In this document: positions 9,986 through 55,901 of the stretch, piece by piece | Layout: the number at the start of each line of letters is the position of its first letter | Numbering within the stretch: position 1 is the first letter of the stretch | Origin: Patescibacteria group bacterium | Lineage (GTDB): Bacteria; Patescibacteriota; Patescibacteriia; XYB2-FULL-38-15 | Direction of reading: 5' to 3' | Assembly (NCBI GenBank): GCA_041650995.1 | Contig: JBAZJZ010000001.1 | Location: 7,891-71,890, forward strand | DNA length: 64,000 nucleotides | Notes under the pieces: generated by a model | What the model was told of the DNA's origin: nothing | The model's database searches: none | The model's input: only the letters and a program-made list of their open reading frames with translations | Program-made: the position numbers and the translations under genes

Positions 9986-10016
9986 GCAGGGCGCTTCGGC
10001 GCCCTGCTTTGATTTT
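9986..10016 (+). terminator. rho-independent terminator
   Basis: GCAGGGCGCttcgGCGCCCTGC hairpin followed by TTTGATTTTGT. Confidence 0.7.
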
Positions 10017-10039
10017 GTGGTAAAATAAATACAACGGGT

Positions 10040-10789: not shown

Positions 10790-10794
10790 CGCCG

Positions 10795-11166
10795 CGGTCG
10801 GAATGACAGCCTTCAGGCTGTTACGATAACACGCTAAAGCGTGTCATTCCACAAAAACATAGATTGACGGTCAGACTGACAGCGCCTGCAACTTTTCGGA
10901 ATGACAGCCTTCAGGCTGTTAAAACTAGATAACACGCTAAAGCGTGTCATTCCACAAAAACATAGATTGACGGTCAGACTGACAGCGCCTGCAACTTTTC
11001 GGAATGACAGCCTTCAGGCTGTTAAAACTAGATAACACGCTAAAGCGTGTCATTCCACAAAAACATAGATTGACGGTCAGACTGACAGCGCCTGCAACTT
11101 TTCGGAATGACAGCCTTCAGGCTGTTATGGTAACACCCTAAAGGCTGTCACTCCGGGTATTACTCC
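10795..11166. repeat. tandem array (~3.5 copies, period 98-103 bp) of REP double-hairpin units, downstream flank of the RAYT gene
   Basis: The unit is ggaatgACAGCCttcaGGCTGTtacgataACACGCtaaaGCGTGTcattccacaaaaacatagattgacggtcagactgacagcgcctgcaacttttc. It repeats head-to-tail at 10801, 10899, 11002 and 11105 (the last copy is partial and variant). Confidence 0.85.
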
Positions 11167-11210
11167 AAAATTTAATTTAAAAAACATTTTAATAATTAAT
11201 TTAAAAACCT

Positions 11211-11870: not shown

Positions 11871-11966
11871 ATAATAAAATTTTAATTTTTAATGTACCAA
11901 TCTTATTCCCTGAGCGAAGCGTAGCGGAGTCGAAGGGCGGCCTTCGACAAGCTCAGGCCGTAGCAT

Positions 11967-12236
11967 ATGCCAGGATGGAAGTGGTACATTTATATTATTC
12001 GGTGTAAAGATAAAAGTTATTACACTGGTTTGACATGGCAGCCAAGTGATCGCTGGGCACAGCACCTGTCCGGTTTTGGGGCGGAATACACCAAACTTCA
12101 TAAGCCGGAAAAAGTTGTCTTTTTGGAAGAATATGAAGATTTGGAAGAGGCGAGGAGGAGAGAAAAACAAATAAAGGGTTGGACAAGAAAAAAGAAAGAA
12201 AAATTGATTAAGGGTGAGTGGAGCAAATGGGAATAG
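11967..12236 (+). CDS. GIY-YIG nuclease-domain protein, 89 aa, stand-alone
   Basis: WYIYIIRCKDKSYYTGLT....R..QH is the GIY-YIG motif, and C-terminal ...EKQIKGWTRKKKEKLI resembles the UPF0213/YhbQ family. It is bracketed by near-identical 21-bp direct repeats (11939-11959 and 12236-12257). Confidence 0.75.
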   Translation: MPGWKWYIYIIRCKDKSYYTGLTWQPSDRWAQHLSGFGAEYTKLHKPEKVVFLEEYEDLEEARRREKQIKGWTRKKKEKLIKGEWSKWE

Positions 12237-12305
12237 CCCTTCGATAAGCTCAGGGCATAATATTTTATGTTATTTAAAAATTAAAAATTATAAAATTTAA
12301 AAATT

Positions 12306-13994
12306 ATGAAGAAGTTTTTTTCAGTTTTAATTTTCTTTTTAATTATAGCGGGTTTTTCTGCGCAGGCATCCGAAACCATCACCGTCACAAACACCTCCGC
12401 TCCGACCGCGATTTTTTACCCCTCGGAGTTTGACAAGTTAGTGATGGATTTTACAATCGCGCGGGCGGATGGAGCAGCTGATGTTTTAAACGCTTTAACT
12501 TTAAAAAATGAAGGAACAGCCTGGGGTTGGGATATTTCTAAAGTTGTGGTTTGGGCGGATATTGGACCAACGGGATTTCAGGGAATGGATATAGACAAAA
12601 AAATAGGCGAAGCAGTGCGTTATGAAACCGGCGGATATTGGTATTTGCAGGCGCTTCAGGAAACTGTACCCGCGACCGGGCTTCGAATTTTCGTAAGTAT
12701 CGAAACGGCATCAAGGAGCGTGATTTCATCCAACAAAACAATGCAAATGAAAGTGCCGGCGCTTGAAGATAGCGGAACAATCGGCAGGTTTGATTTGGGA
12801 GACACGGGTTTGTTTTTGGCTGGAACGACGGGAGTTTCCGAAGGGATTTTGAATCCACACGTTCAAACTATTTGGCCTTCAAACTATGACGCAAGCGCGC
12901 CGAAAACCGTGATTACTTCGCCTTCCGGCGGAGCAACGCTCACTGGCTCAAGTTACAAAATCATGGGCACTTCGCGCGATCAGGGCGGTTCAACTCCGGC
13001 CTCGGTGCAGATTTTAATTTCATCAGGAAGTTCGGCCGGCTCTTGGGTTGATGTCACAAATACCGGAACAAATTATTCAACCTGGGAATACAATTGGACA
13101 AATATTTCCGACGGAACTTATACGATTAAAACTCAGGGGTCGGATTGGATTGGCAATGTGGAGACTCTCGGAGAGGGGATCACAGTGACGGTTGACCAGA
13201 CCGCCGCGACCGCGGTTTCTGCCGCGCTTTCCACGGTTTCCGTTTCGCCGAATGTTTTGACTGCTGATGGCGTAGCAAGAGCTTTTGCCACAGTAACCGT
13301 TAAAAATTCCGCTGGCAGTACGCTTTCCGGGAAAACCGTTACTTTAACTTCAAACCGTTCAACCGATAGCATCACGGCAACAAAAGATTTAACCGGATCT
13401 GATGGCGTGGCTACCTTTGAAATAAAATCAACTTCGGCAGGCGATGCGACACTAAAGGCCATGGTCGGAACTGTAGAAATTTCAGAGCAGCCGGTTATAA
13501 CTTTTACTGCGGTAACTTTTGCCGCGGGAGATTTGATCAAAGGGTCTGGCAGCACCGCTGTTTACTATTACGCGGAGAATGGCAGAAGATATATTTTCCC
13601 GACCGCTGCGACTTATTCTTCCTGGTTTTCTAATTTTTCTTCAATTAAAACAATTTCCGACGCAGAACTCGCTTCAGTGCCGACAACCGGAAACGTGACA
13701 GTTCGTCCTGGAAAATTAGTCCAAATCGTGAGCATGGATACGCCGTGGAAAGTAATGGATCCCAAAGTTTATGCCGTAAGCCGCGAGGGAGTTTTACACT
13801 GGATTAAAACCGCCGAGGTGGCCGTCGCGATTTTTGGAGCGAACTGGGAGAGCCAAATCATTGCCGTGCCAGAAGTTTTTTCTACAAATTATAATTACGG
13901 CGCGGATATTTCCGCTACCGCCGATTATAATCTTTCCGCCGAGCAGGCGATAGCGACGATTGACGAGGATAAAAGAGCATGGGTGACGGAGTAA
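12306..13994 (+). CDS. secreted surface protein (562 aa) with a Big_1-type Ig-like domain and the C-terminal conserved ~150-aa module
   Basis: It has a signal peptide (MKKFFSVLIFFLIIAGFSAQA). A Big_1/invasin-like segment is present (SVSPNVLTADGVARAFATVTVKNSAGSTLSGKTVTLTS...DGVATFEIKSTSAGDATL). The C-terminal domain is GDLIKGSGSTAVYYYAENGRRYIFP...VRPGKLVQIVSMDTPWKVMDPKVYAVSREGVLHWI. Confidence 0.7.
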   Translation: MKKFFSVLIFFLIIAGFSAQASETITVTNTSAPTAIFYPSEFDKLVMDFTIARADGAADVLNALTLKNEGTAWGWDISKVVVWADIGPTGFQGMDIDKKIGEAVRYETGGYWYLQALQETVPATGLRIFVSIETASRSVISSNKTMQMKVPALEDSGTIGRFDLGDTGLFLAGTTGVSEGILNPHVQTIWPSNYDASAPKTVITSPSGGATLTGSSYKIMGTSRDQGGSTPASVQILISSGSSAGSWVDVTNTGTNYSTWEYNWTNISDGTYTIKTQGSDWIGNVETLGEGITVTVDQTAATAVSAALSTVSVSPNVLTADGVARAFATVTVKNSAGSTLSGKTVTLTSNRSTDSITATKDLTGSDGVATFEIKSTSAGDATLKAMVGTVEISEQPVITFTAVTFAAGDLIKGSGSTAVYYYAENGRRYIFPTAATYSSWFSNFSSIKTISDAELASVPTTGNVTVRPGKLVQIVSMDTPWKVMDPKVYAVSREGVLHWIKTAEVAVAIFGANWESQIIAVPEVFSTNYNYGADISATADYNLSAEQAIATIDEDKRAWVTE

Positions 13995-14039
13995 TTGGTA
14001 ACTGGTAAATAGTAATGGGTAATCATGGATATCGGGTCA

Positions 14040-14530
14040 AAATTTTTCCCCTCTTAAGATAAGAGGGGATTAAGGGGAGTTATGAAAATGCCTCGTTTGT
14101 GTAATAATGTTGTCATTAAAATAAGGCGGCGTATTCTGCGTAAAAACCAAACTGATGCAGAAAGAAAATTGTGGAGTATATTGCGAAACAAGCAAACGGA
14201 CAACTTAAAATTTTTTCGTCAGTATAGTGTCAGCCATTACATTCTTGATTTTTACTGCCCTAAACATAAGTTGGCCATTGAACTCGACGGCGGGCAGCAT
14301 GGAGAGGAGAAACAAAAGGCACATGATGACTAGCGTACTGGATATCTTCAACAATATAAGATTTATGTCCTGAGATTTTGGGATGATGAGGTGTTAACTA
14401 ATCTAGATGGAGTGGCGATGAGTATAAAAGAAAAAATTGATGGCCGTTCATAACCCCTCCCAACCTCCCCTTATCTTAAGGGGAGGGGAAAATCTCGTTA
14501 CTTATTACCCGTTACCCATTACATTCAAAT
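14040..14530. mobile_element. inverted-repeat-bounded mini-element carrying a DUF559 gene (putative non-autonomous or degenerate mobile element)
   Basis: The left arm (13991-14080) is gtaattggtaactggtaaatagtaatgggtaatc...ttttcccctcttaagataagaggggattaaggggag. The right arm (14455-14525) is its imperfect reverse complement (cccctccccttatcttaaggggaggggaaaatc...gttacttattacccgttacccattac). Each arm contains a GGTAA-heptad block and a G/C-rich palindrome. Confidence 0.4.
14082..14453 (+). pseudogene. DUF559 (Vsr-like, restriction-endonuclease-fold) domain protein interrupted by an in-frame TAG at 14331-14333
   Basis: The 83-aa ORF (..LRKNQTDAERKLWSILRN...FFRQYSVSHYILDFYCPKHKLAIELDGGQHGEEKQKAHDD*) continues in the same frame after the TAG (RTGYLQQYKIYVLRFWDDEVLTNLDGVAMSIKEKIDGRS*). 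Together they give a full-length ~125-aa DUF559 protein (R..Q..IG.YI.DFYC...KL.IE.DG..H ... V.RFWN.EV). Confidence 0.65.
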
Positions 14531-14699
14531 ACTGTGGATAACTTTCCTCTTGACCAACTCGTTTTTTCGTGATAAAATAAAAGAAGATTAAATTCTTATG
14601 AATCGTACCGTGCTTGTCGTTTCGCAAACAGGCGAATTAGTTTTAAGTTTCTCTAGGGGGAGAGACTGGTTTAATGCTTAATTTTAGGCATTTTTTTGT

Positions 14700-14750
14700 T
14701 GTTTTTTGTCATTGCGAGGAGTCCCGCCAGAGTGGGACGACGCGGCAATC
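14700..14750. repeat. GTCATTGCGAG...GCAATC palindromic dispersed repeat, copy 1
   Basis: tgtcattgcgag-gagtcccgccagagtgggacgacgcg-gcaatctc has conserved termini and a variable internal hairpin. It is shared with the inverted pair at 29392-29475. Confidence 0.6.
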
Positions 14751-14909
14751 TCTTAAAAAGACGTCTACTTACTAATAAATTTAATTAAATATAAATCTTA
14801 TCCCGCGAGAATTTACTTTCTGCGGGGAAAATAAAGACGAATTTCAGAATTAATCGCGAATAAATTTTTATTCGCGGTTCCCAATTCTTAATTCGTAATT
14901 TAGAAAAAT

Positions 14910-17663
14910 ATGGCAGAAAAAATCAAAAAAGGCTTTTTTAAAGTATTACCATTGTCGGTGGTAGTATTTTTAGTCATCGGCGTGTCCGTCGGTGTCTGGT
15001 ATAGTTTACCAGTTAACCCGGCTAAGGCAGCTGCCTTAGCGCCTTTGACTACCACATACCTAGACGCGGATGCCGACGGAACAGTTGATAATATCAGACT
15101 TACTTTCACTAATGTTACTGCCTGCACTTATGAAGCGGGTGATTGGGCAGTGGGCGCGGCTGGGACAATAAATGTTACGGCTGTAAATGGTTTTACTAAC
15201 GCTGCTTCTTGTACGACCGATGAATATATCGACGTAGCTGTTACAACTACTCCGGATATTACCGGCGGGGCAGTTGATCCGAGACTTGACTATACAGACG
15301 CGGGTGTGGCAGGAAGTGTAGTCGCCGATGGCAATCAGGATGCGGCTAATTTTACGGCGACTGACGCGGCTGCGCCATATCTTGTTTCCGCAACTTACGC
15401 AGATTCCGACGCGGGTGGTAATATCGATGAAGTTACTTTTGTATTTTCCGAGTCGACAACTTGGACCGCCATGACTGCTGCGGATTGGGCATTTTCAGCG
15501 GTCGGTGATGTTAATTTGGCGGGAGATTTTCTCATTGGCGATTGTACTGCCTCTCCGGCTGTAACCTATACCTGTACTGATGCGGCCAATGCGCACATTA
15601 CTTCCGACGCCAATAAAACCGGTAAACAAACCACGGGAGGAAGTGAGCCAACCTTTACTTATACTAATGCCCACAACGATATCAACGACACAGTCAACAA
15701 TACCGCCACTTTTGGGCCGAGATCTTTAGTTGATGGCGCCGCTCCGTTAATTTTGACGCGCGTCACTAAAGACACTAATTCAACTTCGGGCGCTGCGGGA
15801 ACAGCTGATGGTGATTTGGATGGCGTTCTTGCTACCTTTACCGAGGTCATGGATGCTTCCTCTGTCGCCGTCACGGATTTCGTTATTACTCTAAATGATG
15901 GTACGGCTAAAACCGAAGCATATGCAGACACAACCGATGACACTACTTTATTTTTTGGCTTGAGCAACCCAACTGCCAATGATACTTATGATCTTTTAAA
16001 GTTGCAGATCACTGGTGGTGATGGCATTTTGGATTATGCCGGCGTTAGTTTTGTTGCTGAAGGAGCTTCCTCGGCCGCAACCGATGGCGCTGCTCCAGTC
16101 ATTGTGACCACTTCTCCGGCCGACAACGCAACCGACGTGGCTTTAGACGCAAACCTTGTTATCACCTTCTCTGAACCAATGACTACAGCCTCTGTCACCG
16201 GCGCGATTGCCAGAGTTCCGTCCTTTACTCTTGGTGCGGCAGGTTGGACGGCTGGCAATACAGTCTTGACTTACGCGGCACATGATGCGTGGGCCGGCAT
16301 GCAGAACTACATTATTACCTTAGCTGGAACTATCGCTTCGGCTGCCGTGGGTGATCCTGATCTTGGAACTGGTCCGGTCGCCAATCCCTTTGACTTTACA
16401 ACAGTCGCGGCTTCAAGCGGCGGCAGCAGCGGCGGCAGCAGTTTACCTGCTTCTGTAACCGTCACTGCTCCGAATGGCGGGGAAACTTTGGTCGGCGGTT
16501 CAGCATATAGCATCACTTGGTCTGCGGCGGGTGTCACTGATACTGTGAGCATCTACTACTCCCTTGATTCCGGAATTAATTTCCCATACACCATTGCCAC
16601 GGGCGAAACAAATGATGGATCTTACATATGGACAGTGCCGAACATTGGGACAAGTACTGCTAAAATAAAAGTAGCTGCCGGTTCTTTAAATGATATTTCC
16701 GACGCGAATTTTACAATCACTTATTCTACAACAGAGGTTTCTGCCTCAAACTCTACGATTGTTGCTTCTCCAACCTCAGTTGTTGCCAATGGGACTTCTA
16801 AATCAACCGTTACAGTCACTGTCAAAGACACAAGCAACAATTTGCTTTCCGGCAAGACTGTGACCTTAGCCTCAAGTCGAGGCACTTCTGATACGGTCAC
16901 TACTGTGACGGGTACGACTGGCGCAAATGGCGTTGCCACTTTTGAAGTGAAGTCCGGTACTGCCGGCACTTCAACTTACACGGCGACTGCCGCGGGTGTA
17001 ATTCTTAGCCAAACCGTTTCAGTTGTCTTTTCAGCTCCTGGCGAAACTCCTCCAGTTGGCGAAACCCCAGTTTCTTTGAGCGTTGGCGATTTGATTAAGA
17101 GTAGTTTGAGTTCTTCTGTTTACTATTATGGCTCTGATGGTAAACGCCACGTCTTCCCAAATGAAAAGACTTACAAGAGTTGGTATGTTGATTTTACTGG
17201 CATTAAGATTATTCCCGCTTCTCAACTTCAGGGATTGGCTCTTGGTAACAATGTCACTATCCGCCCCGGCACTGTGCTTGTGAAAATCCAAACAGATCCT
17301 AAAGTTTACGCCGTTGAACCAGGCGGTCTTCTCCGCTGGGTGCCGACCGAAGCCCGCGCCACCACCTTGTACGGTTCTGCCTGGGCGACAAAGATTGTTG
17401 ATGTCCCGGTGGTTTTCTGGGGCGACTATACCTTTGGAAGCGACATAACAACTGATGCTCATCCAACAGGAGCAATAATCCAATATTCTGGCTCAACAGA
17501 CAAGTACTACATCCAGGGATCGGCAAGGCGATTAATCTCCACAGCTGGCTTTACTGCCAATCACTTCCAGCTCGGATACGTCCTTTCTGTTCCAACCACA
17601 TTGTCTTATTCTCTGGGTTCGCCCTTGACTGCTGAGGAGACTGCGCTTACGAGGATTTTTTAG
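14910..17663 (+). CDS. large secreted multidomain surface protein (917 aa), first member of a tandem paralog pair
   Basis: It has a signal peptide (MAEKIKKGFFKVLPLSVVVFLVIG). It carries repeated ~100-aa modules beginning with DADADGTVDNIRLTF / DSDAGGNIDEVTFVF (DxDxDG Ca-loop-like). An SbsA-type Ig-like module follows (APVIVTTSPADNATDVALDANLVITFSEPMTTASV). There is a beta-sandwich module (VTAPNGGETLVGGSAYSITWSAAG...GSYIWTVPN) and a Big_1 module (SNSTIVASPTSVVANGTSKSTVTVTVKDTSNNLLSGKTVTLASS). The C-terminal conserved domain is GDLIKSSLSSSVYYYGSDGKRHVFP...KVYAVEPGGLLRWVP. Confidence 0.7.
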   Translation: MAEKIKKGFFKVLPLSVVVFLVIGVSVGVWYSLPVNPAKAAALAPLTTTYLDADADGTVDNIRLTFTNVTACTYEAGDWAVGAAGTINVTAVNGFTNAASCTTDEYIDVAVTTTPDITGGAVDPRLDYTDAGVAGSVVADGNQDAANFTATDAAAPYLVSATYADSDAGGNIDEVTFVFSESTTWTAMTAADWAFSAVGDVNLAGDFLIGDCTASPAVTYTCTDAANAHITSDANKTGKQTTGGSEPTFTYTNAHNDINDTVNNTATFGPRSLVDGAAPLILTRVTKDTNSTSGAAGTADGDLDGVLATFTEVMDASSVAVTDFVITLNDGTAKTEAYADTTDDTTLFFGLSNPTANDTYDLLKLQITGGDGILDYAGVSFVAEGASSAATDGAAPVIVTTSPADNATDVALDANLVITFSEPMTTASVTGAIARVPSFTLGAAGWTAGNTVLTYAAHDAWAGMQNYIITLAGTIASAAVGDPDLGTGPVANPFDFTTVAASSGGSSGGSSLPASVTVTAPNGGETLVGGSAYSITWSAAGVTDTVSIYYSLDSGINFPYTIATGETNDGSYIWTVPNIGTSTAKIKVAAGSLNDISDANFTITYSTTEVSASNSTIVASPTSVVANGTSKSTVTVTVKDTSNNLLSGKTVTLASSRGTSDTVTTVTGTTGANGVATFEVKSGTAGTSTYTATAAGVILSQTVSVVFSAPGETPPVGETPVSLSVGDLIKSSLSSSVYYYGSDGKRHVFPNEKTYKSWYVDFTGIKIIPASQLQGLALGNNVTIRPGTVLVKIQTDPKVYAVEPGGLLRWVPTEARATTLYGSAWATKIVDVPVVFWGDYTFGSDITTDAHPTGAIIQYSGSTDKYYIQGSARRLISTAGFTANHFQLGYVLSVPTTLSYSLGSPLTAEETALTRIF

Positions 17664-17682
17664 CATAAGGTTAGATAGTTAA

Positions 17683-17716
17683 AAACCAGGCTGGGTTTAT
17701 TCCGGCCTGGTTTTGT
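17683..17716 (+). terminator. rho-independent terminator, identical to the one at 20689-20724
   Basis: AAAACCAGGCTGGGTttattCCGGCCTGGTTTTGTG. Confidence 0.7.
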
Positions 17717-17832
17717 GGTATAATAAAAAAACCATTCATTAGGGCGTGTGGATAAATTTATTTTTAAAAATAATTAATTTTTCAGTTTGGCCATTTTTAA
17801 TTTTTACATTTGGCTAAATTAACTAAAAAAAT

Positions 17833-30750: not shown

Positions 30751-31428
30751 TTAAAATTTATTTTTTGATTTTAATATTTTAATAATTTTGGCAGTTTCGT
30801 AATAAGCCGTAGTCATAACGCGGGTCATAAATTTTACGGCGGGAATAAAATCGTTCGAATCGGACGCGTTTAGACAATCCAGATATTGACATCGATTATC
30901 TTTAATGATGAAATTTATTAAAATAGGAAATGACTTCTCAGATAAATCCTCGGATCTTAAAATTAGGCACATTAATAAACGAGCAGTTCGTCCATTGCCG
31001 TCAGTGAATGGATGTATGGCGACAAACTGATGGTGGATATACCACGCCATAAACACCTTACGAAGAATTTCATACTGTTTGTCCGTGAATGTATTTTTTT
31101 CTATTTTGTTTAAGAAAAGTAGCTTAAACTTATTTTTCCATAGGCGTTTGTTGTTAATAAAATCAATTAGATCTAGAATTTTGTATTCTATTTGCCATGC
31201 CTCACAGGGCGAGAAAGTTTTTTTATGAATTTCTATTTTATCCGTGGCTGTTCTGTATCTTCCTGCTTCTTTTGGCTTGTCGGCTAATACTTCTTTATGC
31301 AGCATAAGAAAAAAGCTCTTTGGTATAAAGAGTTTTTTTCTTTTTGCTTGTTTAAAGTAAGAAAGAGCCACGGCCGTCGCCTCGGTTAGATTTTCTGTTT
31401 CTATTTTTAGGTTGGCATTCTTTCTCAT
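30751..31428 (-). CDS. Fic/DOC family protein (canonical AMPylation motif)
   Basis: It has the Fic core motif HPFTDGNGRTARLL (HxFx[DE]GNGRxxR). It is 225 aa. No intramolecular [ST]xxxE[GN] inhibitory motif was found. Confidence 0.85.
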   Translation of the reverse strand: MRKNANLKIETENLTEATAVALSYFKQAKRKKLFIPKSFFLMLHKEVLADKPKEAGRYRTATDKIEIHKKTFSPCEAWQIEYKILDLIDFINNKRLWKNKFKLLFLNKIEKNTFTDKQYEILRKVFMAWYIHHQFVAIHPFTDGNGRTARLLMCLILRSEDLSEKSFPILINFIIKDNRCQYLDCLNASDSNDFIPAVKFMTRVMTTAYYETAKIIKILKSKNKF

Positions 31429-36347: not shown

Positions 36348-36758
36348 ATGGACTGCATTTTTTGTAAAATCATCAGAGGAGAATTGCCCTCGGTAAAAGT
36401 TTATGAAAATCACAAAGTGGTGGCCTTTTTGGACATTAATCCGGTGAATCCCGGACATACACTTGTCGTACCCAAAGAGCATTTTGAAAATTTGCTTGAC
36501 GGAGGAGAGGAAATTTTAAAAGAAATAATGATTACAATAAAAAAAGTGGCGTGGGGAATTACCAGGGCGTTTGATTTGAAGGGTTTTAATGTCGGACAAA
36601 ACAACGGCGCGATCGCCGGTCAAGTCGTTCCGCATTTACATTGGCACATTATTCCACGCTTTGAAAACGACGGTTTGCATCCGTGGTCAAGGACAAAACA
36701 ATATCAGGAAGGGGAGATGGCAGAAATCGGGGAAAAGATTAAAAAATTTATAGAATAA
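36348..36758 (+). CDS. HIT family protein (histidine triad nucleotide hydrolase/transferase)
   Basis: It has the HIT motif (VVPHLHWHIIPR) and an N-terminal MDCIFCKII. Confidence 0.85.
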   Translation: MDCIFCKIIRGELPSVKVYENHKVVAFLDINPVNPGHTLVVPKEHFENLLDGGEEILKEIMITIKKVAWGITRAFDLKGFNVGQNNGAIAGQVVPHLHWHIIPRFENDGLHPWSRTKQYQEGEMAEIGEKIKKFIE

Positions 36759-38531: not shown

Positions 38532-39119
38532 ATGAAAGAGACCATCACCTTGGCGGAGGCGCGCAAGCGCTTGGGCGAGAATGTCGTCGTCTGTCTCGAG
38601 CCCGATGCGGTCCGCGAGAAGAAGGTCACGGAGAACAAGGCGGCCGAGCTCTGGATTTTCGATCCGGCTACCGGATGGAGCTGCCGGGGCGACGGCAAAT
38701 TCCACGACGCCCGCTACGTGGATCGCGGCGGCTGGGGACAGATCGCGCTCTACGAGGAGCCGAACGTGCCGCAGCCGGAGGACGGTAGTCCGCGCGTTGT
38801 GGGCCATGTCGTGATCGAGATGAACAGGTACGGCGCGCCGCGGGTGCGGGTGCGGAGGACCAAGGGTCTGAATGGCGAGGTCTTGGAACTGAAGCCGTCC
38901 AGTATCTCCAAGGGAGAATTGGCCGACAAGGGCAAGCTCGTCGGTACGTTCTACGATTCGAACTTCGTCGAGTCGAACCCCCAGCGCATCATGGGGATGA
39001 TAGCCATCTATCTCGTGAATGCTGACTTCCCGGACGAAGAGGGCATGACTCCGGACGAGTTCCGGAGGCAGTCCACCGACGGTCGCTCGCTTTCGGCCTT
39101 GGCCAAGGCCGGGCTGTAG
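38532..39119 (+). CDS. hypothetical protein (195 aa) encoded by a GC-rich (~65 %GC, strongly GC3-biased) foreign insert
   Basis: It has a strong RBS (GGAAGGAGAAGAAGGA-ATG), an upstream TTGACA, and its own terminator (39174-39207). Its codon usage is unlike every neighbouring gene. There is no motif recognisable from sequence alone. Confidence 0.55.
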   Translation: MKETITLAEARKRLGENVVVCLEPDAVREKKVTENKAAELWIFDPATGWSCRGDGKFHDARYVDRGGWGQIALYEEPNVPQPEDGSPRVVGHVVIEMNRYGAPRVRVRRTKGLNGEVLELKPSSISKGELADKGKLVGTFYDSNFVESNPQRIMGMIAIYLVNADFPDEEGMTPDEFRRQSTDGRSLSALAKAGL

Positions 39120-48925: not shown

Positions 48926-49071
48926 ATAAGTTTCAGATGTTTTATATGTTATCAAAGAGTTTTTAGGCTGTCAACCTTATTTTAGGTCTACCCTTGAATT
49001 TAAAAGATAAATGAGATATAATTGAAAAATAGATTAAAGATTTTTGGTTAAAAAATAAACAAAATAAATAT

Positions 49072-49293
49072 ATGAAAACAGAATCTTTCAGAATGGCTTT
49101 TGAGACAGAGAAGGACATTACATGGATGGTAGTTATTGAAGAATTGTTTAAACATCTAAAGGGTGAATCAGACGTTGAAAAAAGGAAAAATATTGAGGAT
49201 GAAATCAGAGAGCAGTTAAAGAGATATCGAAGAGAGTTTGGCAAAACAGCGGTCGAGCCTTATTATGAAGAATTAAAAAAATTTAAAAAGTAG
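49072..49293 (+). CDS. hypothetical small charged protein (73 aa)
   Basis: Complete ORF upstream of nifU; no motif. Confidence 0.3.
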   Translation: MKTESFRMAFETEKDITWMVVIEELFKHLKGESDVEKRKNIEDEIREQLKRYRREFGKTAVEPYYEELKKFKK

Positions 49294-49300
49294 CAGTTTT

Positions 49301-49696
49301 ATGTCTCAAATTATGTATTCAAAGGAAGTTATAAAACATTTTAAAACTCCGCATAATCAAGGGGTGATTAAAAATCCGACGGTTGTCGGAGAGTCGGGAA
49401 ACCCTCTCTGCGGTGATATGATGAAATTATATTTAAAAATTGATAAGAAAAAAGTCGGCGGGAAAATAGTTGATTATATTAAAGACATTAAATTTGAAAC
49501 TCTGGGTTGCGCCGCGGCCATTGCCACGTCGTCCATGATTACTGATTTAGTAAAGGGAAAGGAAGTAGAAGAAGCAGCCAAGGTGACGAAAGCCAATATA
49601 GCCGATTCATTGGGCGGTCTGCCGCCAATAAAGTTACACTGCTCGGTTTTGGCGGTTGAGGCCCTGCATGACGCGATTAAAAAATTAAATAAATAA
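49301..49696 (+). CDS. nifU: Fe-S cluster assembly scaffold protein (IscU/SufU/NifU N-domain)
   Basis: It has the three conserved Cys ([27 protein letters not shown]) and [11 protein letters not shown]. Confidence 0.8.
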
Positions 49697-49700
49697 ATTT

Positions 49701-49925
49701 ATGAAAAATAAAGTTAAAAAAATTTTAGACGAAATACGGCCGGCTCTTCAAGCTGATGGAGGAGATGTGGAATTAGTTGATGTCGATGAAAAAACCGGCG
49801 TGGTGAAAGTTAAACTTGTTGGTGCTTGTCATCATTGCCCAATGGCGGCGATGACCCTTGAGCAGGGAATCGCGAGAGTCTTGAAAGCAAAAATTAAAGA
49901 AGTGAAAGAAGTGCAAGCGGTGTAA
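49701..49925 (+). CDS. NifU C-terminal (Nfu-like) domain protein
   Basis: [42 protein letters not shown] carries the CxxC Nfu motif. Confidence 0.7.
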
Positions 49926-49929
49926 ATTT

Positions 49930-51129
49930 ATGAAGCGAATATATTTTGATCATTCGGCTACGACGTCAGTTGACCCGCAAGTTTTGCGGGCGATGTTGCC
50001 GTATCTAAAAAATAATTTTGGCAACGCGTCGTCGCTTCATTTTTTTGGTCAAAAAGCGCGAATCGGGGTCGAAAAAGCGCGGGAGCAAGTGGCAAAATTT
50101 TTGTCTTGCAAATCTAAGGAAATTATTTTTACTTCTGGAGGGACAGAAAGTAATAATCTGGCGATAGTTGGTTTTGTCCGTCGGGCGCGCGCGCTTGATC
50201 CGAAAAGAAAAATTCACGTAATCACTTCGGCGATTGAACATCCGGCGGTTTTTGAGGTTTGTCGCGAATTAAAAAAAGAAGAAGTTGAAGTTACATATTT
50301 GCCTGTCAGTCGCAAGGGAATAGTAAAATTGGAAGATTTCAAAAAGGCAATTCAGCCAGAAACGATTTTAGTTTCCATAATGTATGTTAATAATGAAGTC
50401 GGCACAATCCAGCCGATACAAGAAATTAGCCGGATTGTCAAAGAGGTAAACGCCGGTCGCGGTAATGAAGACAAAATTTATTTTCATACCGACGCGGTTC
50501 AGGCGGTAAATTTTTGTAATTGCCGAGTTGATTTTTTGGGAGTTGATATGTTATCTTTTTCGGCACACAAAATTTACGGACCAAAGGGAACGGGTATTCT
50601 TTTTGTGCGAGAAGGCACGCCACTTTTCCCAATTATTTTTGGTGGCCATCAGGAACGGGGGATCCGCTCCGGGACGGAAAATGTCGCGGGGATAGTTGGG
50701 CTTGGCAAGGCAGTGGAACGATTGAGTGAAAAGTTAAAAGTTAAAAGTGAAAATTTAAGGATAAAAAAATTGCGTGATAAATTGGTAAAGGGAGTTTTAC
50801 AAAAGATTCCCGGCGTAATTTTTAACGGTGATTTAAAACAGCGTGTACCGGGAAATATTAATTTCTGTTTCAAAAATGTAGAGGGTGAGAGTATTTTATT
50901 GATGCTTGACATGGAAGGCATCGCCATCTCTACTGGTTCAGCTTGCTCTTCCGGATCGCTTGAGCCGTCGCACGTCCTTTCCGCCATGGGAATTTCTCCA
51001 GAGATTTCTCACGGAAGCGTGCGCATCACTTTAGGAAAAAACAATACCGAAGAAGAAGTGCGCCGCTTAATTAAAGTATTGCCTGGCATTGTGGCGAAAT
51101 TACGCGAGATGTCGCCCATCAAAAACTAG
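49930..51129 (+). CDS. nifS: cysteine desulfurase (NifS/IscS type)
   Basis: IYFDHSATTSVDPQVLRAMLPYL; a PLP lysine region (SFSAHKIYGPKG); catalytic Cys (STGSACSSG). An in-frame AAGTTAA heptad block lies at 50727-50755. Confidence 0.9.
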   Translation: MKRIYFDHSATTSVDPQVLRAMLPYLKNNFGNASSLHFFGQKARIGVEKAREQVAKFLSCKSKEIIFTSGGTESNNLAIVGFVRRARALDPKRKIHVITSAIEHPAVFEVCRELKKEEVEVTYLPVSRKGIVKLEDFKKAIQPETILVSIMYVNNEVGTIQPIQEISRIVKEVNAGRGNEDKIYFHTDAVQAVNFCNCRVDFLGVDMLSFSAHKIYGPKGTGILFVREGTPLFPIIFGGHQERGIRSGTENVAGIVGLGKAVERLSEKLKVKSENLRIKKLRDKLVKGVLQKIPGVIFNGDLKQRVPGNINFCFKNVEGESILLMLDMEGIAISTGSACSSGSLEPSHVLSAMGISPEISHGSVRITLGKNNTEEEVRRLIKVLPGIVAKLREMSPIKN

Positions 51130-51141
51130 ATTGCCTTTCAA

Positions 51142-51534
51142 ATGATTTTTTTCATCGCCATTAAAAATTTTTTCAGACTTTTCACCGTCCTTATTTTTAA
51201 AGACGGATTTTTTAGATTACTATTTTTTTTCTCGCTGGCGGTGAATTTATTTATTTGGGGTTTTCTTTATTTAAAATTTTCTCCACTTCGGGCGCTGGGA
51301 GAAAATTTTCCCCTGCATTATAATATTTATTTTGGAGTTGATTTTATTGGCAGGTGGTACGAAATATTTATTATGCCGCTTATCGGTACTTTTTTTATCG
51401 CCATCAATTTTATTTTGGCGGATATAATTTATTTAAGAGATAAAATCACAAGTTATTTCTTGACGGGAGCCGGCGCTTTTATTCAAATTTTACTTCTTTT
51501 AGCCGCTTATTCGGTCGTTATGATTAATCAATGA
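51142..51534 (+). CDS. hypothetical integral membrane protein (130 aa)
   Basis: Four hydrophobic helices; no motif. Confidence 0.35.
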   Translation: MIFFIAIKNFFRLFTVLIFKDGFFRLLFFFSLAVNLFIWGFLYLKFSPLRALGENFPLHYNIYFGVDFIGRWYEIFIMPLIGTFFIAINFILADIIYLRDKITSYFLTGAGAFIQILLLLAAYSVVMINQ

Positions 51535-51537
51535 AAT

Positions 51538-52587
51538 ATGGACAATTTTTCAATCATTAAAATTTTTATTCTCACGACTTTTTCGTTTATCATGGCTATG
51601 TCCTGGACACCGGCTCTGACTTATTTTTTGTTTAAATATAAATTGGGCAAGCAAATCAGGGATGAAAAATCGGCGCCGATAATGTCGGCGCTCCATAAAG
51701 CGAAATCCGGCACGCCGACCATGGGCGGAGTTTTAATTTGGGTTACAGTTTTAGTTTTAGCTTTGTTGGTTTTTTATCTTGGGGAGTGGACGGGCTCGGA
51801 GTTGCTAAAAAAATTTAATTTTTTAACGCGTTCTCAAACGCTTTTACCTTTGGGGGCGCTCGTCGCTTCGGCAATAGTTGGTTTAGTTGATGACTATTTA
51901 AACGCGCGGAGAATTGGACCGAACGGCGGGGGTTTTAGAATGCGCCACAGGCTTTTGATGTATACCTTGATCGCAGCGGTTGGCGCGTGGTGGTTTTATT
52001 TTAAACTTGATTGGGATTTTATCCACGTTCCTTTTTTAGGAAGTTTTTCTATCGGATGGTGGTATATTCCTATTTTTATTTTTATAATTGTCGCGACATC
52101 TTTTTCAGTAAACGAAAGCGACGGTCTGGATGGTCTGGCCGGGGGACTGCTTTTAGCCGCTTTTGCCGCATATGGCGCGATTGCTTTTTCTCAGGGGAAA
52201 ATGGATTTAGCTGCTTTTTGCGGCGTGATTGCCGGGTCTCTCCTGGCTTTTCTTTGGTTTAACATCAACCCCGCTAGATTTTTTATGGGTGATACAGGGG
52301 CGATGTCGCTCGGCGTGACGCTTGGCATCGTGGCTATGCTTACGAATTCAGTTTTACTTTTACCAATCATCGGATTTTTGTTCGCAGTAGAATCAATTTC
52401 CGTGATTATTCAAATTATTTCCAAAAAAATTAGAAGAAAAAAGGTTTTTCTTTCAACCCCCCTCCATCATCACCTCGAGGCTATTGGTTGGCCCGAGCCC
52501 AAAATTGTTATGCGCTTCTGGGTCATTGCCGGAGTGATGGCAGTCGTGGGTTTTATTATTTCGCTCATGGATGTTGGCTTGGGATAA
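51538..52587 (+). CDS. mraY: phospho-N-acetylmuramoyl-pentapeptide transferase
   Basis: It has DDYLNARR, NESDGLDGLAGG and HHHLE motifs. Confidence 0.9.
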   Translation: MDNFSIIKIFILTTFSFIMAMSWTPALTYFLFKYKLGKQIRDEKSAPIMSALHKAKSGTPTMGGVLIWVTVLVLALLVFYLGEWTGSELLKKFNFLTRSQTLLPLGALVASAIVGLVDDYLNARRIGPNGGGFRMRHRLLMYTLIAAVGAWWFYFKLDWDFIHVPFLGSFSIGWWYIPIFIFIIVATSFSVNESDGLDGLAGGLLLAAFAAYGAIAFSQGKMDLAAFCGVIAGSLLAFLWFNINPARFFMGDTGAMSLGVTLGIVAMLTNSVLLLPIIGFLFAVESISVIIQIISKKIRRKKVFLSTPLHHHLEAIGWPEPKIVMRFWVIAGVMAVVGFIISLMDVGLG

Positions 52588-52611
52588 AAAGTGATTTATG
52601 TTTTTTAAAGT

Positions 52612-53709
52612 ATGAAAAAACCGGATTACGTTTTTATTGGGATTATTGGTGCGCTTTTAGTTTTCGGTTTGATGATGCTTTCGTCGGCGAGTTCGCCGGC
52701 AGCTTATGAAAAGTTCGATGATAATTATTGGTATTTGAAACACCAAGTTTTTTTTGGTTTGTTGCCTGGCCTTGGCGCATTTTTTTTAATGTCGCGTTTG
52801 GATTACAGAAAATGGAAAAAGTACGCATTGCCCTTTTTGGTTATTTCTGTCGTGCTCCTGCTTTTAGTTTTTATTCCAGGCCTCGGCGCCGGCTATGGAA
52901 AAGCTAAAAGTTGGATAAATATTTTGGGCATGTCGCTCCAGCCGTCGGAAATAGTTAAATTAACTTTTTTAATTTATCTCGCGGCTTGGCTTGGTCCAAA
53001 ACGCGGCGGGCGGGATATGCAAGAAGCGGGCGCGAGTTTTATTCCTTTTATAGTGGTTTTTGGCATCATAGCTATTTTAATGATTTTACAGCCGGACATC
53101 GGCACTCTTTCCGTTATCGCGATAATTTCGGTAATTGTTTATTTTTCCGCCGGAGCGCCTCTTTTACACCTTGCCTGGATTTCCGGAGCGGGGGCGTTTT
53201 TATTTTTTCTTTTGGTAAAACTTGCTCCATATCGAACTGCGCGTTTAACGACTTTTTTACATCCAGAACTTGATCCGCAGGGAGTCGGTTATCATATCAA
53301 TCAGGCATTGCTCGCGATTGGCTCGGGCGGGTTTTTCGGATTGGGTTTGGGTCTTTCGCGACAAAAATTTCAATATCTTCCCGAAGTGGCCGGTGATTCC
53401 ATTTTTGCCGTCATGGCCGAAGAGTTGGGTTTTATTTTTATGATTTTATTTGTCGCGGCGTTGGTGGGTTTGGCGATTCGCGGATTTAAAATTGCCAAAA
53501 ACGCTCCGGATGGTTTTGGCCGGTTGCTCGCGATTGGTATTACGAGTTGGTTTGTTTTACAATCATTTATAAATATTGGGGCAATGCTTGGAATTTTGCC
53601 CTTGACCGGAATTCCTTTGCCTTTTGTAAGTTATGGCGGCACGGCGCTTACGGTTTGTCTTGCCGCAGCGGGAATTATGGCAAATATTTCAAAATATTCT
53701 AGGGAATAA
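52612..53709 (+). CDS. ftsW: FtsW/RodA/SpoVE family peptidoglycan glycosyltransferase
   Basis: It is a 10-TM SEDS protein with SEIVKLTFLIYLAAWL...PLPFVSYGGTA. Confidence 0.85.
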   Translation: MKKPDYVFIGIIGALLVFGLMMLSSASSPAAYEKFDDNYWYLKHQVFFGLLPGLGAFFLMSRLDYRKWKKYALPFLVISVVLLLLVFIPGLGAGYGKAKSWINILGMSLQPSEIVKLTFLIYLAAWLGPKRGGRDMQEAGASFIPFIVVFGIIAILMILQPDIGTLSVIAIISVIVYFSAGAPLLHLAWISGAGAFLFFLLVKLAPYRTARLTTFLHPELDPQGVGYHINQALLAIGSGGFFGLGLGLSRQKFQYLPEVAGDSIFAVMAEELGFIFMILFVAALVGLAIRGFKIAKNAPDGFGRLLAIGITSWFVLQSFINIGAMLGILPLTGIPLPFVSYGGTALTVCLAAAGIMANISKYSRE

Positions 53710-53713
53710 TTTT

Positions 53714-54784
53714 ATGAAAATAATTTTGGCTGGTGGAGGGACAATGGGGTCGGTAACGCCGCTACTGGCTGTGGCCGAAGAATTGCAAAAACGCACACCC
53801 GACGCGGAATTTTTGTGGATTGGAACAAAGAATGGTCCGGAGAAAAAAGTTGTTGAGGTTTATAACATTAAATTCATAAGTGTGCCGGCGGGAAAATTAC
53901 GCCGATATTTTTCCGGTTGGAATTTTTTAATGCCATTTTTGATTGCGGCGGGATTTTTCAAATCTCTTCGGTTGATTTTAAAATTCAAGCCGCAGATGAT
54001 TTTGTCGGCCGGCGGGTTTGTTGCCGTACCTGTTATTTGGGCCGGCTGGGTTTTGCGCGTGCCGAGTTTAGTTCATCAGCAAGATGTTCGGCCAGGTTTG
54101 GCAAATAAACTGACGGCGCGATTTGCAAAAATTATTACTGTAACATTTTCGGAATCTTTAAAATATTTTCCCCGCGCCATTGTGACGGGAAACCCGGTGC
54201 GTCCGGAAATTTTTTCCGGAAATAAAGATCGCGCCGCAGAAATTTTTAATTTAGAGAAAAATATTCCGGTAATTTTAATCTTAGGAGGTGGGACAGGTGC
54301 GTTTAGTTTGAATAAAATCGTCGTGGCTGCCGCGCTTCGTCTTGCCGAATTTTGTCAGGTTGTTCACATGACCGGAGGAAGAGTTGATGTGCCGCTGCAA
54401 TCGAAAATAGAAACAATAAAAAGAGAAACTGCTCGCTATCATTCAGTGGAGTTTTTGATGAAAGATTATTCTGACACCCTTGCCGTAGCGGATCTCGTGA
54501 TTTCCCGCGCAGGATTAGGAACATTATCTGAGCTTGCTATGCTCGGTAAACCAACAGTGCTTATCCCAATCCCTGGCAGTCACCAAGAAGATAACGCCTA
54601 TTATTTTAAAAAACAAAATGCTGTTGTTATTTGGAACGAACGGAATATTACGCCGGAAAATTTTTCTGAAGCAATCCGCGAACTGTTAAACAATAAAGTA
54701 GAATTAGAAAGCTTGGGCAGAAATATTAAAAAGATAATGCCAATTGATGCGGCAAAGAAGATGGCTGACGAAATTTTAAGATAA
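53714..54784 (+). CDS. murG: undecaprenyldiphospho-muramoylpentapeptide beta-N-acetylglucosaminyltransferase
   Basis: MKIILAGGGTMGSVTPLLAVAEEL...; the C-terminal domain has GGTGAFSLN...SRAGLGTLSELAMLGKPTVLIP. The ORF track's upstream extension is ignored. Confidence 0.85.
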   Translation: MKIILAGGGTMGSVTPLLAVAEELQKRTPDAEFLWIGTKNGPEKKVVEVYNIKFISVPAGKLRRYFSGWNFLMPFLIAAGFFKSLRLILKFKPQMILSAGGFVAVPVIWAGWVLRVPSLVHQQDVRPGLANKLTARFAKIITVTFSESLKYFPRAIVTGNPVRPEIFSGNKDRAAEIFNLEKNIPVILILGGGTGAFSLNKIVVAAALRLAEFCQVVHMTGGRVDVPLQSKIETIKRETARYHSVEFLMKDYSDTLAVADLVISRAGLGTLSELAMLGKPTVLIPIPGSHQEDNAYYFKKQNAVVIWNERNITPENFSEAIRELLNNKVELESLGRNIKKIMPIDAAKKMADEILR

Positions 54785-54866
54785 AAAGTATTACTTTTTG
54801 TTATCCACGCTCGTTCGGAAATGAAATTAAAATTTCATTTCTCTCACTCGCTTGATAATAAAAAAA

Positions 54867-54917
54867 CAAGGACAGAATTTTGTGAAACCTTTCCTCCCGG
54901 AGGGTTTTTCTGTCCTT
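54867..54917 (-). terminator. rho-independent terminator of the GGDEF gene (minus strand)
   Basis: On the minus strand it reads CAAGGACAGAAaaaccctccgggaggaaaggtttcacaaaaTTCTGTCCTTG followed by TTTTTTTATT. Confidence 0.6.
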
Positions 54918-54926
54918 GAGGTTCTT

Positions 54927-55607
54927 CTAGCGCTTGACGGCGACCACGCGGTTGCGGCCCCCACGCTTCGCGCGGTACATCATCATGTCGGCTGCGTGGA
55001 TCAGGGGAGCCGAGAGTTCGGGGCGATACCATTCAGCCACGCCGATGCTGATTGTGACAGGGATCTCGTGTTCAGCGCAGTCGAAGGGTTTGTCGGCTAC
55101 CGCCTTGCGTAGCCGTTCTGCCGCGATCGCGGCTTGTTCCAGAGTGTTGTTGCGGAGAACTCCGAGAAATTCTTCGCCGCCGTGCCTGCCGATGACATCG
55201 TAGTCTCGCAGGGTTTCGCGGAAACGTTTCGCCAGTTCGACGAGGACGGCGTCCCCGACTTCGTGGCCGAGTTCGTCGTTGACGGCCTTGAAGTGGTCAA
55301 CGTCGACAAAGAGAACCGAGAGAGGCGTGCCGTAGCGCCGGGCGTAAGCTACTTCTGCTTCGACGGTTTCGTCGATGCGGTAGCGGTTGGGCAGGCCGGT
55401 CAGAGGGTCGGTCCCGACCATCTCTTGAAGGTCGGTATTTTTGGACCGAAGTGTTTCGTTCTCATCAAAGAGTCTTCCGTTTTCTGCCCGAAGACTCCGG
55501 ATCAACGCCTCGTCCTCCGCGAGTGCTTCGTATGCCGCTGCAAGAGCGATCCACAGCTGCCGCGGCTTGAGTTTCCCGAATTGGTCAAAAACCCACTCAA
55601 GATTCAT
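54927..55607 (-). CDS. GGDEF-domain diguanylate cyclase (GGEEF active site) with an N-terminal coiled coil; GC-rich (~58-60 %GC) foreign-composition gene
   Basis: DPLTGLPNRYRIDE...LFVDVDHFKAVNDELGHEVGD...RHGGEEFLGVL...ISIGVAEW is the complete GGDEF signature. It has an RBS (GGGAGG) and a consensus promoter on the minus strand (see next feature). Confidence 0.85.
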   Translation of the reverse strand: MNLEWVFDQFGKLKPRQLWIALAAAYEALAEDEALIRSLRAENGRLFDENETLRSKNTDLQEMVGTDPLTGLPNRYRIDETVEAEVAYARRYGTPLSVLFVDVDHFKAVNDELGHEVGDAVLVELAKRFRETLRDYDVIGRHGGEEFLGVLRNNTLEQAAIAAERLRKAVADKPFDCAEHEIPVTISIGVAEWYRPELSAPLIHAADMMMYRAKRGGRNRVVAVKR

Positions 55608-55634
55608 GATTACCTCCCTCTGCTGTTATCTATC

Positions 55635-55663
55635 GCAACTTTTTATTTTAGGATAAAGTATTG
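55635..55663 (-). promoter_or_regulatory. sigma70 consensus promoter (TTGACA-N17-TAAAAT) driving the GGDEF gene
   Basis: On the minus strand: TTGACA aaaccaatactttatcc TAAAAT, then ...GGGAGGtaatc ATG. Confidence 0.5.
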
Positions 55664-55727
55664 GTTTTGTCAAGATAAAATAAAACCTCTCAATCTAAGG
55701 TTTTATTGAATTTAAGGAAATAAAAAA

Positions 55728-55800
55728 TGACCCGGCTGGGGCTCGAACCCAGGACCCTCTGCTTAAAAGGCAGATGCTCTACCAGCTGAGCTACCGGGTC
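55728..55800 (-). tRNA. tRNA-Lys (anticodon UUU)
   Basis: The reverse complement GACCCGGTAGCTCAGCTGGTAGAGCATCTGCCTTTTAAGCAGAGGGTCCTGGGTTCGAGCCCCAGCCGGGTCA folds into a canonical cloverleaf: 7-bp acceptor, 4-bp D stem, 5-bp anticodon stem with loop CTTTTAA, and a 5-bp T stem with TTCGAGC loop. Confidence 0.85.
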
Positions 55801-55901
55801 ATAATAAAATTTTAAAAAAAGAACGAGAAAGTCGTTAATAGCCGTTTTAGTCTTAATTTGATATAATAATACCAAGACATTTTATTTTTGGCAATAGTTT
55901 T

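Follow-up and report, generated by a model that had tools for sequence, protein, structure and literature searches.

Several diguanylate cyclases are built as one long helix that runs straight into the GGDEF domain, among them DgcB (6ttr), SiaD (7e6g), GCN4-WspR (3i5c) and the linker-GGDEF part of PadC (6et7/5llw). It is established for WspR, PadC and DgcB that dimerisation through the stalk juxtaposes two GTP-loaded GGDEF domains, and the RxxD motif, or I-site, is the allosteric product-inhibition site of diguanylate cyclases. Here we analysed a gene that appears to have the same build in 64,000 nucleotides of a Patescibacteria group bacterium (assembly GCA_041650995.1, contig JBAZJZ010000001.1, positions 7,891 to 71,890); this whole stretch is called the window below. 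The gene encodes a 226-aa GGDEF protein and lies beside tRNA-Lys(UUU), and its coding sequence (CDS) is GC-rich in an AT-rich genome. We consider it likely that it is a lineage-specific minimal diguanylate cyclase, long resident in one genomic slot, with a CDS that is held GC-rich and with alleles that are swapped by homologous recombination within the clade.

A preliminary description of the locus, made from the sequence alone, was accurate in its coordinates and sequence details. Its GGEEF cyclase with intact metal and GTP residues, the N-terminal coiled coil, the strong GC deviation, the neighbouring tRNA-Lys(UUU), the promoter, ribosome binding site (RBS) and hairpin terminator, the absence of a partner gene for cyclic di-GMP (c-di-GMP) from the window and the second GC-rich gene in the same 64 kb were all recovered by the analyses below. 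Its interpretation of the gene as an island, and of the two GC-rich genes as one signalling module, was not upheld.

Diguanylate cyclase protein

The Pfam GGDEF model (PF00990) matched the 226-aa protein over profile positions 3-161 of 161 with E=1.4e-44 and 152.2 bits, against a gathering cut-off of 23.8. The active site is read as RHGGEEF (residues 141-147), and in the sequence the RxxD motif lies five residues ahead of GGEEF (R134-D-Y-D137, then VIGRH-GGEEF). The GTP and metal residues D102, D104, N110, D119, K214 and R218 are invariant or nearly so in the alignment of 19 homologues, and they align with their equivalents in solved active diguanylate cyclases (PleD D327, N335, D344, K442, R446). 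The PDB sequence matches were also active diguanylate cyclases (GcbC, PadC, PleD, WspR, DosC), with E down to 7e-33. A Hypr-GGDEF identity, producing cyclic GMP-AMP, is not supported: at the guanine-specifying position (PleD D344) the protein has Asp119, in GHEVGD, and not Ser, and this Asp is invariant in the family. Judging from homology, the enzyme should make c-di-GMP.

Three allele classes were recognised in the family: class I has GGEEF and includes the window allele, class II has GGDEF or GGDEL, and class III is the third. With the window allele as reference, the ratio of nonsynonymous to synonymous divergence (dN/dS) against class I orthologues was 0.14-0.23, which indicates purifying selection on the gene.

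The AlphaFold (AF2) model on the family alignment (predicted local distance difference test, pLDDT, 91.7) had a single long helix at residues 15-63 and then the GGDEF fold. The helical stalk is predicted to be a coiled-coil dimerisation module. The best Foldseek matches of the model were the coiled-coil-GGDEF structures 3i5c GCN4-WspR, 6ttr DgcB, 7e6g SiaD and 6et7 PadC, with E of about 1e-20 and a target-normalised TM-score of 0.80-0.85 for 3i5c and 6ttr. They share the GGEEF A-site and the RxxD I-site with the window cyclase, but only 30-37% sequence identity. Unlike them, the window cyclase has no input module, its stalk is hypervariable among close relatives and its host has a reduced Patescibacteria genome. 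We identified no REC, phytochrome or membrane input module in the 226-aa protein. PleD/WspR-type REC-GGDEF proteins, the nearest sequence neighbours outside the family (44-52% over the domain), have the catalytic and I-site residues in common with it, but they are 300-460 aa long and carry a receiver domain. The window cyclase lacks the receiver domain, and therefore phosphorylation control is not expected.

Variation within the protein is greatest in the stalk. In comparisons in which the domain is 71-91% identical, the N-terminus reaches 30-66%, and close relatives can have non-homologous N-termini. The motif QLxxALAAAY in the stalk is common to the allele classes in the family alignment. 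The variability is consistent with an interaction surface that may be under diversifying pressure.

No PADLOC defence family matched either of the two GC-rich genes. For the cyclase this includes the anti-phage cyclic-nucleotide systems (CBASS, Pycsar, mCpol-type), and the gene appears monocistronic. Literature searches gave no report of c-di-GMP in Patescibacteria, nor of genes in this group that stay GC-rich.

Genomic slot and relatives of the cyclase

We fetched 17 related loci (L001-L005, L086-L088, L166-L174), which were found by searching for the cyclase gene and so represent occupied sites only. All 17 had the order GT4 / tRNA-Lys / GGDEF> <murG-ftsW-mraY, and the family members that share this slot have protein identities of 49-87%. 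The genes on the other side of the cyclase from murG encode a GT4 glycosyltransferase, an M50-CBS protease, translin, a NUDIX protein and murD/murC-like products. The tRNA-Lys(UUU) is the sole tRNA in the window and lies 119 nt upstream of the cyclase; tRNA-Lys was also seen upstream of the cyclase in L003, L005, L086, L087 and L088. Six contigs from short-read assemblies (L001, L002, L004, L166, L170, L171) end 160-250 nt upstream of the cyclase, within or beside tRNA-Lys. These breaks are probably due to graph branching at a tRNA sequence that is common to co-occurring relatives, and they may hide upstream variation.

The protein search showed a compact family of about 22 clusters, 203-243 aa in length, several of them from named Patescibacteria. 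GGDEF proteins outside the family reached only about 50% identity, and over the domain alone. No closer homologue was found among 5.8 billion proteins or viral contigs, the viral contigs containing no relative above 45% identity, and among the matches listed from a profile scan of genome contigs there were only unrelated GGDEFs (51% identity or less). L093, from the metagenome scan, was rejected as a family member, being an unrelated GGDEF in a 71%-GC contig. By sequence comparison the nearest relatives of the cyclase all appear to belong to the same Patescibacteria lineage. A neighbour-joining (NJ) tree was built from the domains of the family and about 95 of the closest GGDEFs outside it; class I was supported at 100/100 and class II at 90/100, and the three classes formed one clade with weak support (51/100). 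The preliminary description had named the GGDEF phylogeny as a check on horizontal gene transfer (HGT); by that check, the single clade and the nearest relatives in the host's own lineage speak against a recently inserted island. The family clade, the stalk motif QLxxALAAAY and the common regulatory flanks together favour diversification within the clade over repeated import from outside.

A recent horizontal acquisition, that is, a foreign GC-rich gene integrated at a tRNA-Lys hotspot as a single-gene island, was the first interpretation given to this locus. It would agree with the GC content at third codon positions (GC3) of 0.69 against 0.39, with the Arg-rich and Lys-poor protein, with the position at the 3' side of the tRNA and with the self-contained expression unit. 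The cyclase resembles tRNA-linked genomic islands in its unusual composition and in its position directly 3' of a tRNA gene; unlike them, it is a single gene with no integrase and no att repeats, in the same slot in all relatives examined. Neither an integrase nor a recombinase family was found near the cyclase or among the window proteins scanned, and the sole transposase, IS200-like, is 45 kb off. Even when up to 3 mismatches are allowed, the window has a single copy of the 22-nt 3' end of tRNA-Lys, with no distal repeat, and no relevant direct repeat was found in 54700-55900. In addition, the flanking genes co-diverge with the cyclase across the 17 loci, no homologue from outside the candidate phyla radiation (CPR) or from viruses exceeds about 50% identity, and the promoter, untranslated region (UTR) and terminator are host-like and kept across the clade. 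A recent acquisition is thus very improbable. Horizontal movement stands in another form, as allele replacement by homologous recombination within the clade with the tRNA as one breakpoint. Rather than a newly integrated island, the cyclase appears to be a long-term resident of its slot.

Composition changes abruptly at the boundaries, as it would in an assembly chimera or contaminant in which GC-rich foreign reads are mis-joined into an AT-rich contig. We regard this as practically excluded, because assemblies made independently (Logan, JGI, NCBI), from many samples and by many pipelines, contain the same junctions. The boundaries also coincide with the RBS/start and the terminator of a complete expression unit.

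Allele replacement at the locus

Near-identical hosts carry cyclase alleles that are merely 50-80% identical. L001 and L002 are 97-100% identical through murG-ftsW. Their identity falls from 97% directly after tRNA-Lys; from there until some 60 nt ahead of the stop codon it is 27-88%, with unrelated N-termini. L167 and L173 share 93-98% identity in the flanks and 97% over the promoter, the UTR and approximately the first 65 nt of the CDS, compared with 45-62% in the remaining CDS; at the protein level GT4 is 97% and M50 99% identical, and the GGDEF domains 50%. The breakpoints lie at the tRNA or early in the CDS at one end, and at the other end within roughly the final 60 nt of the CDS, which are conserved. 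The cyclase appears to be a local hotspot at which homologous recombination replaces alleles among members of the clade.

L166, the closest relative of the window, is less similar to it at three places: the 3' half of the cyclase, the terminator, where the inner hairpin is of a different variant, and the interior of murG. MurG is markedly more divergent among relatives (72-91% at the amino acid level) than FtsW and MraY (86-99%), and the dips of identity at the 3' end or in the interior of murG suggest linkage with the variable cyclase locus. Over 49000-55771 the window is 95-100% identical to L166 for the most part, with dips in nifS at 50771-50871 (73-79%), in murG at 54271-54571 (71-86%) and at the cyclase and terminator. 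This mosaic identity indicates frequent short recombination tracts in the lineage.

Capsule/O-antigen or pilin loci likewise have divergent alleles in near-identical backgrounds, with breakpoints in conserved flanks and a divergence peak. Unlike those loci, the gene studied here encodes a cytoplasmic signalling enzyme, and all of its alleles are homologous.

Base composition and its maintenance

The GC content of the cyclase CDS is 0.593, with 0.70, 0.39 and 0.69 at the first, second and third codon positions, in a window of GC 0.418 and median gene GC3 0.39. One other gene only, at 38532-39119 (GC3 0.84), is a comparable GC outlier in the window. GC falls sharply at both ends of the CDS, to 0.31 at 55600-55699 and 0.36 at 54800-54899. 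In 16 of the 16 loci tabulated the cyclase has GC 0.555-0.60 and GC3 0.64-0.73 against 0.385-0.444 in the flanks; L087, measured separately, has 0.61 in the cyclase against 0.47 for the locus. The step is confined to the CDS across loci, with GC 0.27-0.40 in the 100 nt upstream and 0.27-0.39 in the 100 nt past the terminator.

Synonymous divergence (dS) of class I orthologues from the window allele was 0.35-1.07 in the cyclase and, for the same pairs, 0.41-1.46 in murG (0.35 vs 0.41, 1.05 vs 1.06, 1.07 vs 1.46). Because the cyclase shows a dS close to or below that seen in murG, the gene has diverged alongside its neighbours and its synonymous sites have largely turned over. Polarised synonymous changes in the cyclase were 143 GC>AT to 83 AT>GC, and the flanking genes gave the mirror image (127:231). 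The ratio 143:83 is the pattern that parsimony bias yields at equilibrium, whereas neutral decay toward 0.39 expects approximately 3.5:1. At the turnover between strong (G, C) and weak (A, T) bases seen in the flanks, neutral decay would require an ancestral four-fold GC of 0.87-1.08 for most pairs. A two-state non-stationary maximum likelihood (ML) model of eight class I alleles gave an equilibrium GC3 of 0.74 for the cyclase (observed 0.73, root 0.70), compared with 0.42 for murG, 0.46 for ftsW and 0.36 for mraY; forcing an equilibrium GC3 of 0.35-0.50 on the cyclase resulted in 2dlnL of 11.6-6.9 and needed a root GC3 of 0.92-0.97. The three decay tests agree in direction and are indicative of a GC content that is kept up and not decaying. 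Synonymous turnover together with the equilibrium GC3 of 0.74 means that the composition is maintained and is not a residue of transfer.

When the minimum free energy (MFE) of the mRNA was compared with synonymous-codon shuffles, z was -2.6, -2.7, -2.2 and -0.4 in four alleles. The more stable folding in three of the four gives weak backing to selection on the transcript. As the cause of the high GC we favour selection on the transcript or codons over residual foreign composition, with a modest confidence that stays a little under even.

Two other causes of the high GC were rejected. Ordinary translational selection, with NNC codons dominating, is unlikely because the genes for ribosomal proteins L9 and L27 show hardly any of this bias (C/(C+T) of 0.36 and 0.43 vs 0.77 in the cyclase). 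A conserved antisense open reading frame (ORF) does not fit as the cause either: the antisense stretch without a stop differs in length between alleles, from 68 to 227 codons, and dN/dS in the sense frame is low.

The allele replacements bear on another explanation, an ancient acquisition followed by source-sink flow, in which an unsampled GC-richer reservoir (a CPR sublineage or a mobile element) keeps feeding alleles into the hosts and no amelioration occurs. The two independent replacements in near-identical host pairs, the mosaic N-termini and an amino-acid composition typical of GC-rich genomes would all be expected from it. But every host context fetched is AT-rich (0.385-0.47), and the search of 5.8 billion proteins and of viral contigs yielded nothing closer. 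The class I cyclase dS, similar to or below that of murG over about 0.35-1.1, means long residence in AT-rich genomes. We give this explanation a minor but real share of probability, well below that of transcript or codon selection.

GC-biased gene conversion (gBGC), in which biased heteroduplex repair at a recombination hotspot drives local fixation of strong over weak bases, would explain why the GC island coincides with the peak of recombination and divergence, why the amino-acid composition shifted along with the synonymous sites and why the equilibrium GC is raised. It is disfavoured because the promoter and UTR are AT-rich (0.27-0.40) although they lie within exchanged tracts, and because the bias is strand- and codon-specific, the enrichment at third positions of the coding strand being of C with unchanged G. 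The part of murG within the divergence peak is also not GC-rich, and a rise of 0.3 in GC3 is, to our knowledge, far beyond the effects reported for gBGC in bacteria. We hold it to be improbable, though less so than a recent acquisition. Whatever weight is left for the cause of the high GC goes to something else.

Second GC-rich gene

The other GC outlier, the ORF at 38532-39119, has an overall GC of 0.63. It has its own promoter (TTGACA-17-TAATTT), RBS and terminators. The protein had no Pfam or PDB sequence match, and its fold is predicted to be Nudix-like. Its family comprises 57 clusters, wider than the approximately 22 of the cyclase, and was found in Patescibacteria only (Falkowbacteria and Uhrbacteria among the names). 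In the window the gene lies between FdtA-like and RmlD/NTP-transferase genes of a deoxythymidine diphosphate (dTDP)-sugar cluster, and the same sugar-nucleotide cluster holds relatives in one Falkowbacteria and one Uhrbacteria contig. These relatives (L175 6001-6648; L176 6001-6573) are also GC-rich, with 0.647 vs 0.408 and 0.675 vs 0.506. Since they stay GC-rich, persistent GC-richness restricted to the CDS is not unique to the cyclase.

The preliminary description had speculated that the cyclase and this 195-aa protein form an acquired signalling module. The protein is not supported as a c-di-GMP effector: no known c-di-GMP-binding domain was matched, its fold is Nudix-like, and its gene lies 16 kb from the cyclase in a dTDP-sugar context.

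Points against the favoured explanation

Several observations weigh against a resident cyclase held GC-rich by selection. In composition, the third-position excess is almost all C, with G3 unchanged: C3 is 0.37-0.48 in the cyclase vs 0.09-0.21 in most neighbour copies (up to 0.37 in the GC-richer L087 locus), and C/(C+T) is 0.70-0.80 vs 0.22-0.39 (up to 0.59 in L087). An excess of C alone would not be expected if selection simply favoured GC-rich structure. The protein has 9.7% Arg and 4.0% Lys, vs 4.0% and 7.9% in host genes, an Arg-rich, Lys-poor shift of the kind that a foreign origin leaves behind. The signal for mRNA structure is modest, one allele lacks it (z = -0.4), and mildly negative z values are common in native mRNAs. 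The equilibrium GC rests on 89 synonymous sites in eight sequences and on a midpoint-rooted NJ tree of a recombining gene, and under the source-sink explanation the equilibrium GC of the gene tree would reflect the reservoir and give the same signal. The three allele classes are monophyletic at only 51/100 NJ bootstrap. Finally, no EAL, HD-GYP, PilZ or MshEN gene was found in the 64-kb window of the 567-kb contig, in a scan that covered 36 window proteins directly and most others through precomputed Pfam at matching positions in L173 and L175, with the short ORF 36348-36758 outside the direct scan.

Proposed mode of action

For the resident cyclase we propose the following. The gene would be transcribed alone from its own strong, near-consensus promoter and end at the terminator common with murG. 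A box in the 5'-UTR at the start of the transcript could serve as an operator. The N-terminal helix of about 60 residues would zip two subunits together, as in DgcB, WspR and PadC, and the dimer would make c-di-GMP until product binding at RxxD limits the output. Because there is no sensor domain, control would come through transcription, I-site feedback and possibly a stalk-binding partner, by analogy with SiaC and SiaD. A GC-rich, structured and RNase-resistant mRNA is one example of what selection would maintain.

A broader idea is a gene-specific compositional regime, in which a few monocistronic genes (at least the cyclase and ORF 38532-39119) are held GC-rich, within the CDS alone, by transcript selection and the cyclase is in addition under diversifying exchange centred on the stalk. 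We offer it as a speculation that is more doubtful than transcript or codon selection for the cyclase itself. Such a regime might act, for example, on mRNAs that resist AU-directed RNases or toxins under stress, or on codons tuned to a reduced set of tRNAs and modifications.

Expression signals and flanking elements

The cyclase appears to be a self-contained monocistronic unit (Table 1). Upstream sequences of 14 loci were compared side by side. The -35 hexamer TTGACA is invariant in all of them, and GGAGG before the start codon is kept in 12 of the 14, not being visible in the stretch shown for L087 and L170. The 5'-UTR box, (A/G)GTCGCGATAGATAAC, lies directly after the -10 element, contains the palindrome TCGCGA and is present at equivalent positions in L001, L086, L167, L168, L172 and L173; it is possibly an operator or leader element. 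Rfam found the tRNA alone in 54700-55900, with no riboswitch in the leader and no match for the box. A short hairpin of variable sequence stands directly before the Shine-Dalgarno sequence in most loci, and the window and L166 are without it. The small hairpin between tRNA-Lys and the cyclase promoter has a comparable hairpin in related loci.

Table 1. Positions of the cyclase gene, its signals and flanking features in the window.
Feature	Position	Strand	Basis
Diguanylate cyclase CDS, 226 aa	54927..55607	-	ORF list, Pfam, composition, dN/dS
GGDEF catalytic domain, residues 66-220	54948..55412	-	Pfam envelope
A-site GGEEF, residues 143-147	55167..55181	-	Translation; G143, G144 and E146 invariant in 19 family members
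I-site RDYD (RxxD), residues 134-137	55197..55208	-	R134, Y136 and D137 invariant in 19 family members
N-terminal helical stalk, codons 1-63 (predicted)	55419..55607	-	AF2 helix 15-63, pLDDT 86-96
Shine-Dalgarno GAGGGAGG, 5 nt ahead of ATG	55613..55620	-	Sequence
Conserved 5'-UTR/initial-transcript box (A/G)GT(C/T)GCGATAGATAAC	55625..55639	-	Side-by-side upstream sequences, 14 loci
Sigma-70-type promoter TTGACA-17-TAAAAT	55645..55673	-	11/12 consensus positions match
Small hairpin and T-run 3' of tRNA-Lys	55679..55707	-	Inverted repeat I8, 10-nt arms, 100% complementary
tRNA-Lys(UUU)	55727..55801	-	ARAGORN; Rfam tRNA, 73 bits
Nested hairpin and T7, bidirectional terminator	54860..54918	-	Inverted repeat I6; plus-strand terminator 54889-54904
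murG, convergent downstream neighbour, right-hand flank of the slot	53714..54784	+	Pfam Glyco_transf_28 N and C domains; synteny
ORF of 195 aa, predicted Nudix fold, own monocistronic unit, not in the cyclase unit	38532..39119	+	Composition, fold prediction

The terminator has perfect 11-nt arms (54867-54877 and 54908-54918) and appears to serve both the cyclase and the convergent murG. Its 8-bp outer stem AGGACAGA/TCTGTCCT is invariant in 12 loci, with 8/8 pairs invariant in the consensus fold, although the adjoining synonymous sites are saturated. We rejected this stem as a dispersed repeat or recombination site, the motif being unique in the window. The inner hairpin exists in two variants in the alignment of the 12 loci. 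L170 carries the L001/L002 variant in reverse complement (loop ACCAAGGAGG vs CCTCCTTGGT), so that either one transcript or the opposite one exposes an SD-like AAGGAGG.

The longest ORF of murG, 53633-54784, overlaps ftsW (52612-53709) by 77 nt; the true start is likely to be the ATG at 53714 (MKIILAGGG...).

Other genes in the window

A Fic/DOC-domain protein is encoded at 30751-31428 on the minus strand (GC 0.336) and matched the PADLOC SoFic defence model with E=2e-27. The IS200-like Y1 transposase at 10103-10789 on the plus strand (Pfam Y1_Tnp, E=4e-9) is the sole mobile-element gene seen in the window. Genes for an extracytoplasmic function (ECF)-type sigma factor and then a DUF5667 protein lie at 4193-6059 (plus strand), and those for very large proteins, some with Big_1, Big_5 or invasin-type Ig domains, at 6195-22735 (plus strand). 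GC in the genes for the very large proteins is 0.47-0.49, raised through the second codon positions, that is, by amino-acid composition, and not through GC3.

Biological meaning

As an enzyme the window cyclase is ordinary. What is unusual is its evolution, in which a GC-rich composition specific to the gene is maintained and alleles are exchanged in a fixed slot. Its sequence points to a capacity for c-di-GMP synthesis in a reduced, probably episymbiotic lineage, by a stalk and a catalytic domain alone, encoded in a neighbourhood of cell-wall and division genes. One would not expect near-identical genomes to swap alleles of a cytoplasmic signalling enzyme, and the swapping suggests that some partner or antagonist recognises the stalk.

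The gene is also a counter-example to inferring a recent island from atypical GC beside a tRNA, its composition being at equilibrium and conserved in the clade. If the equilibrium case generalises, composition-based HGT calls in CPR genomes would be inflated. If the gene-specific regime is true, atypical GC would be a functional heritable trait and not a mark of transfer.

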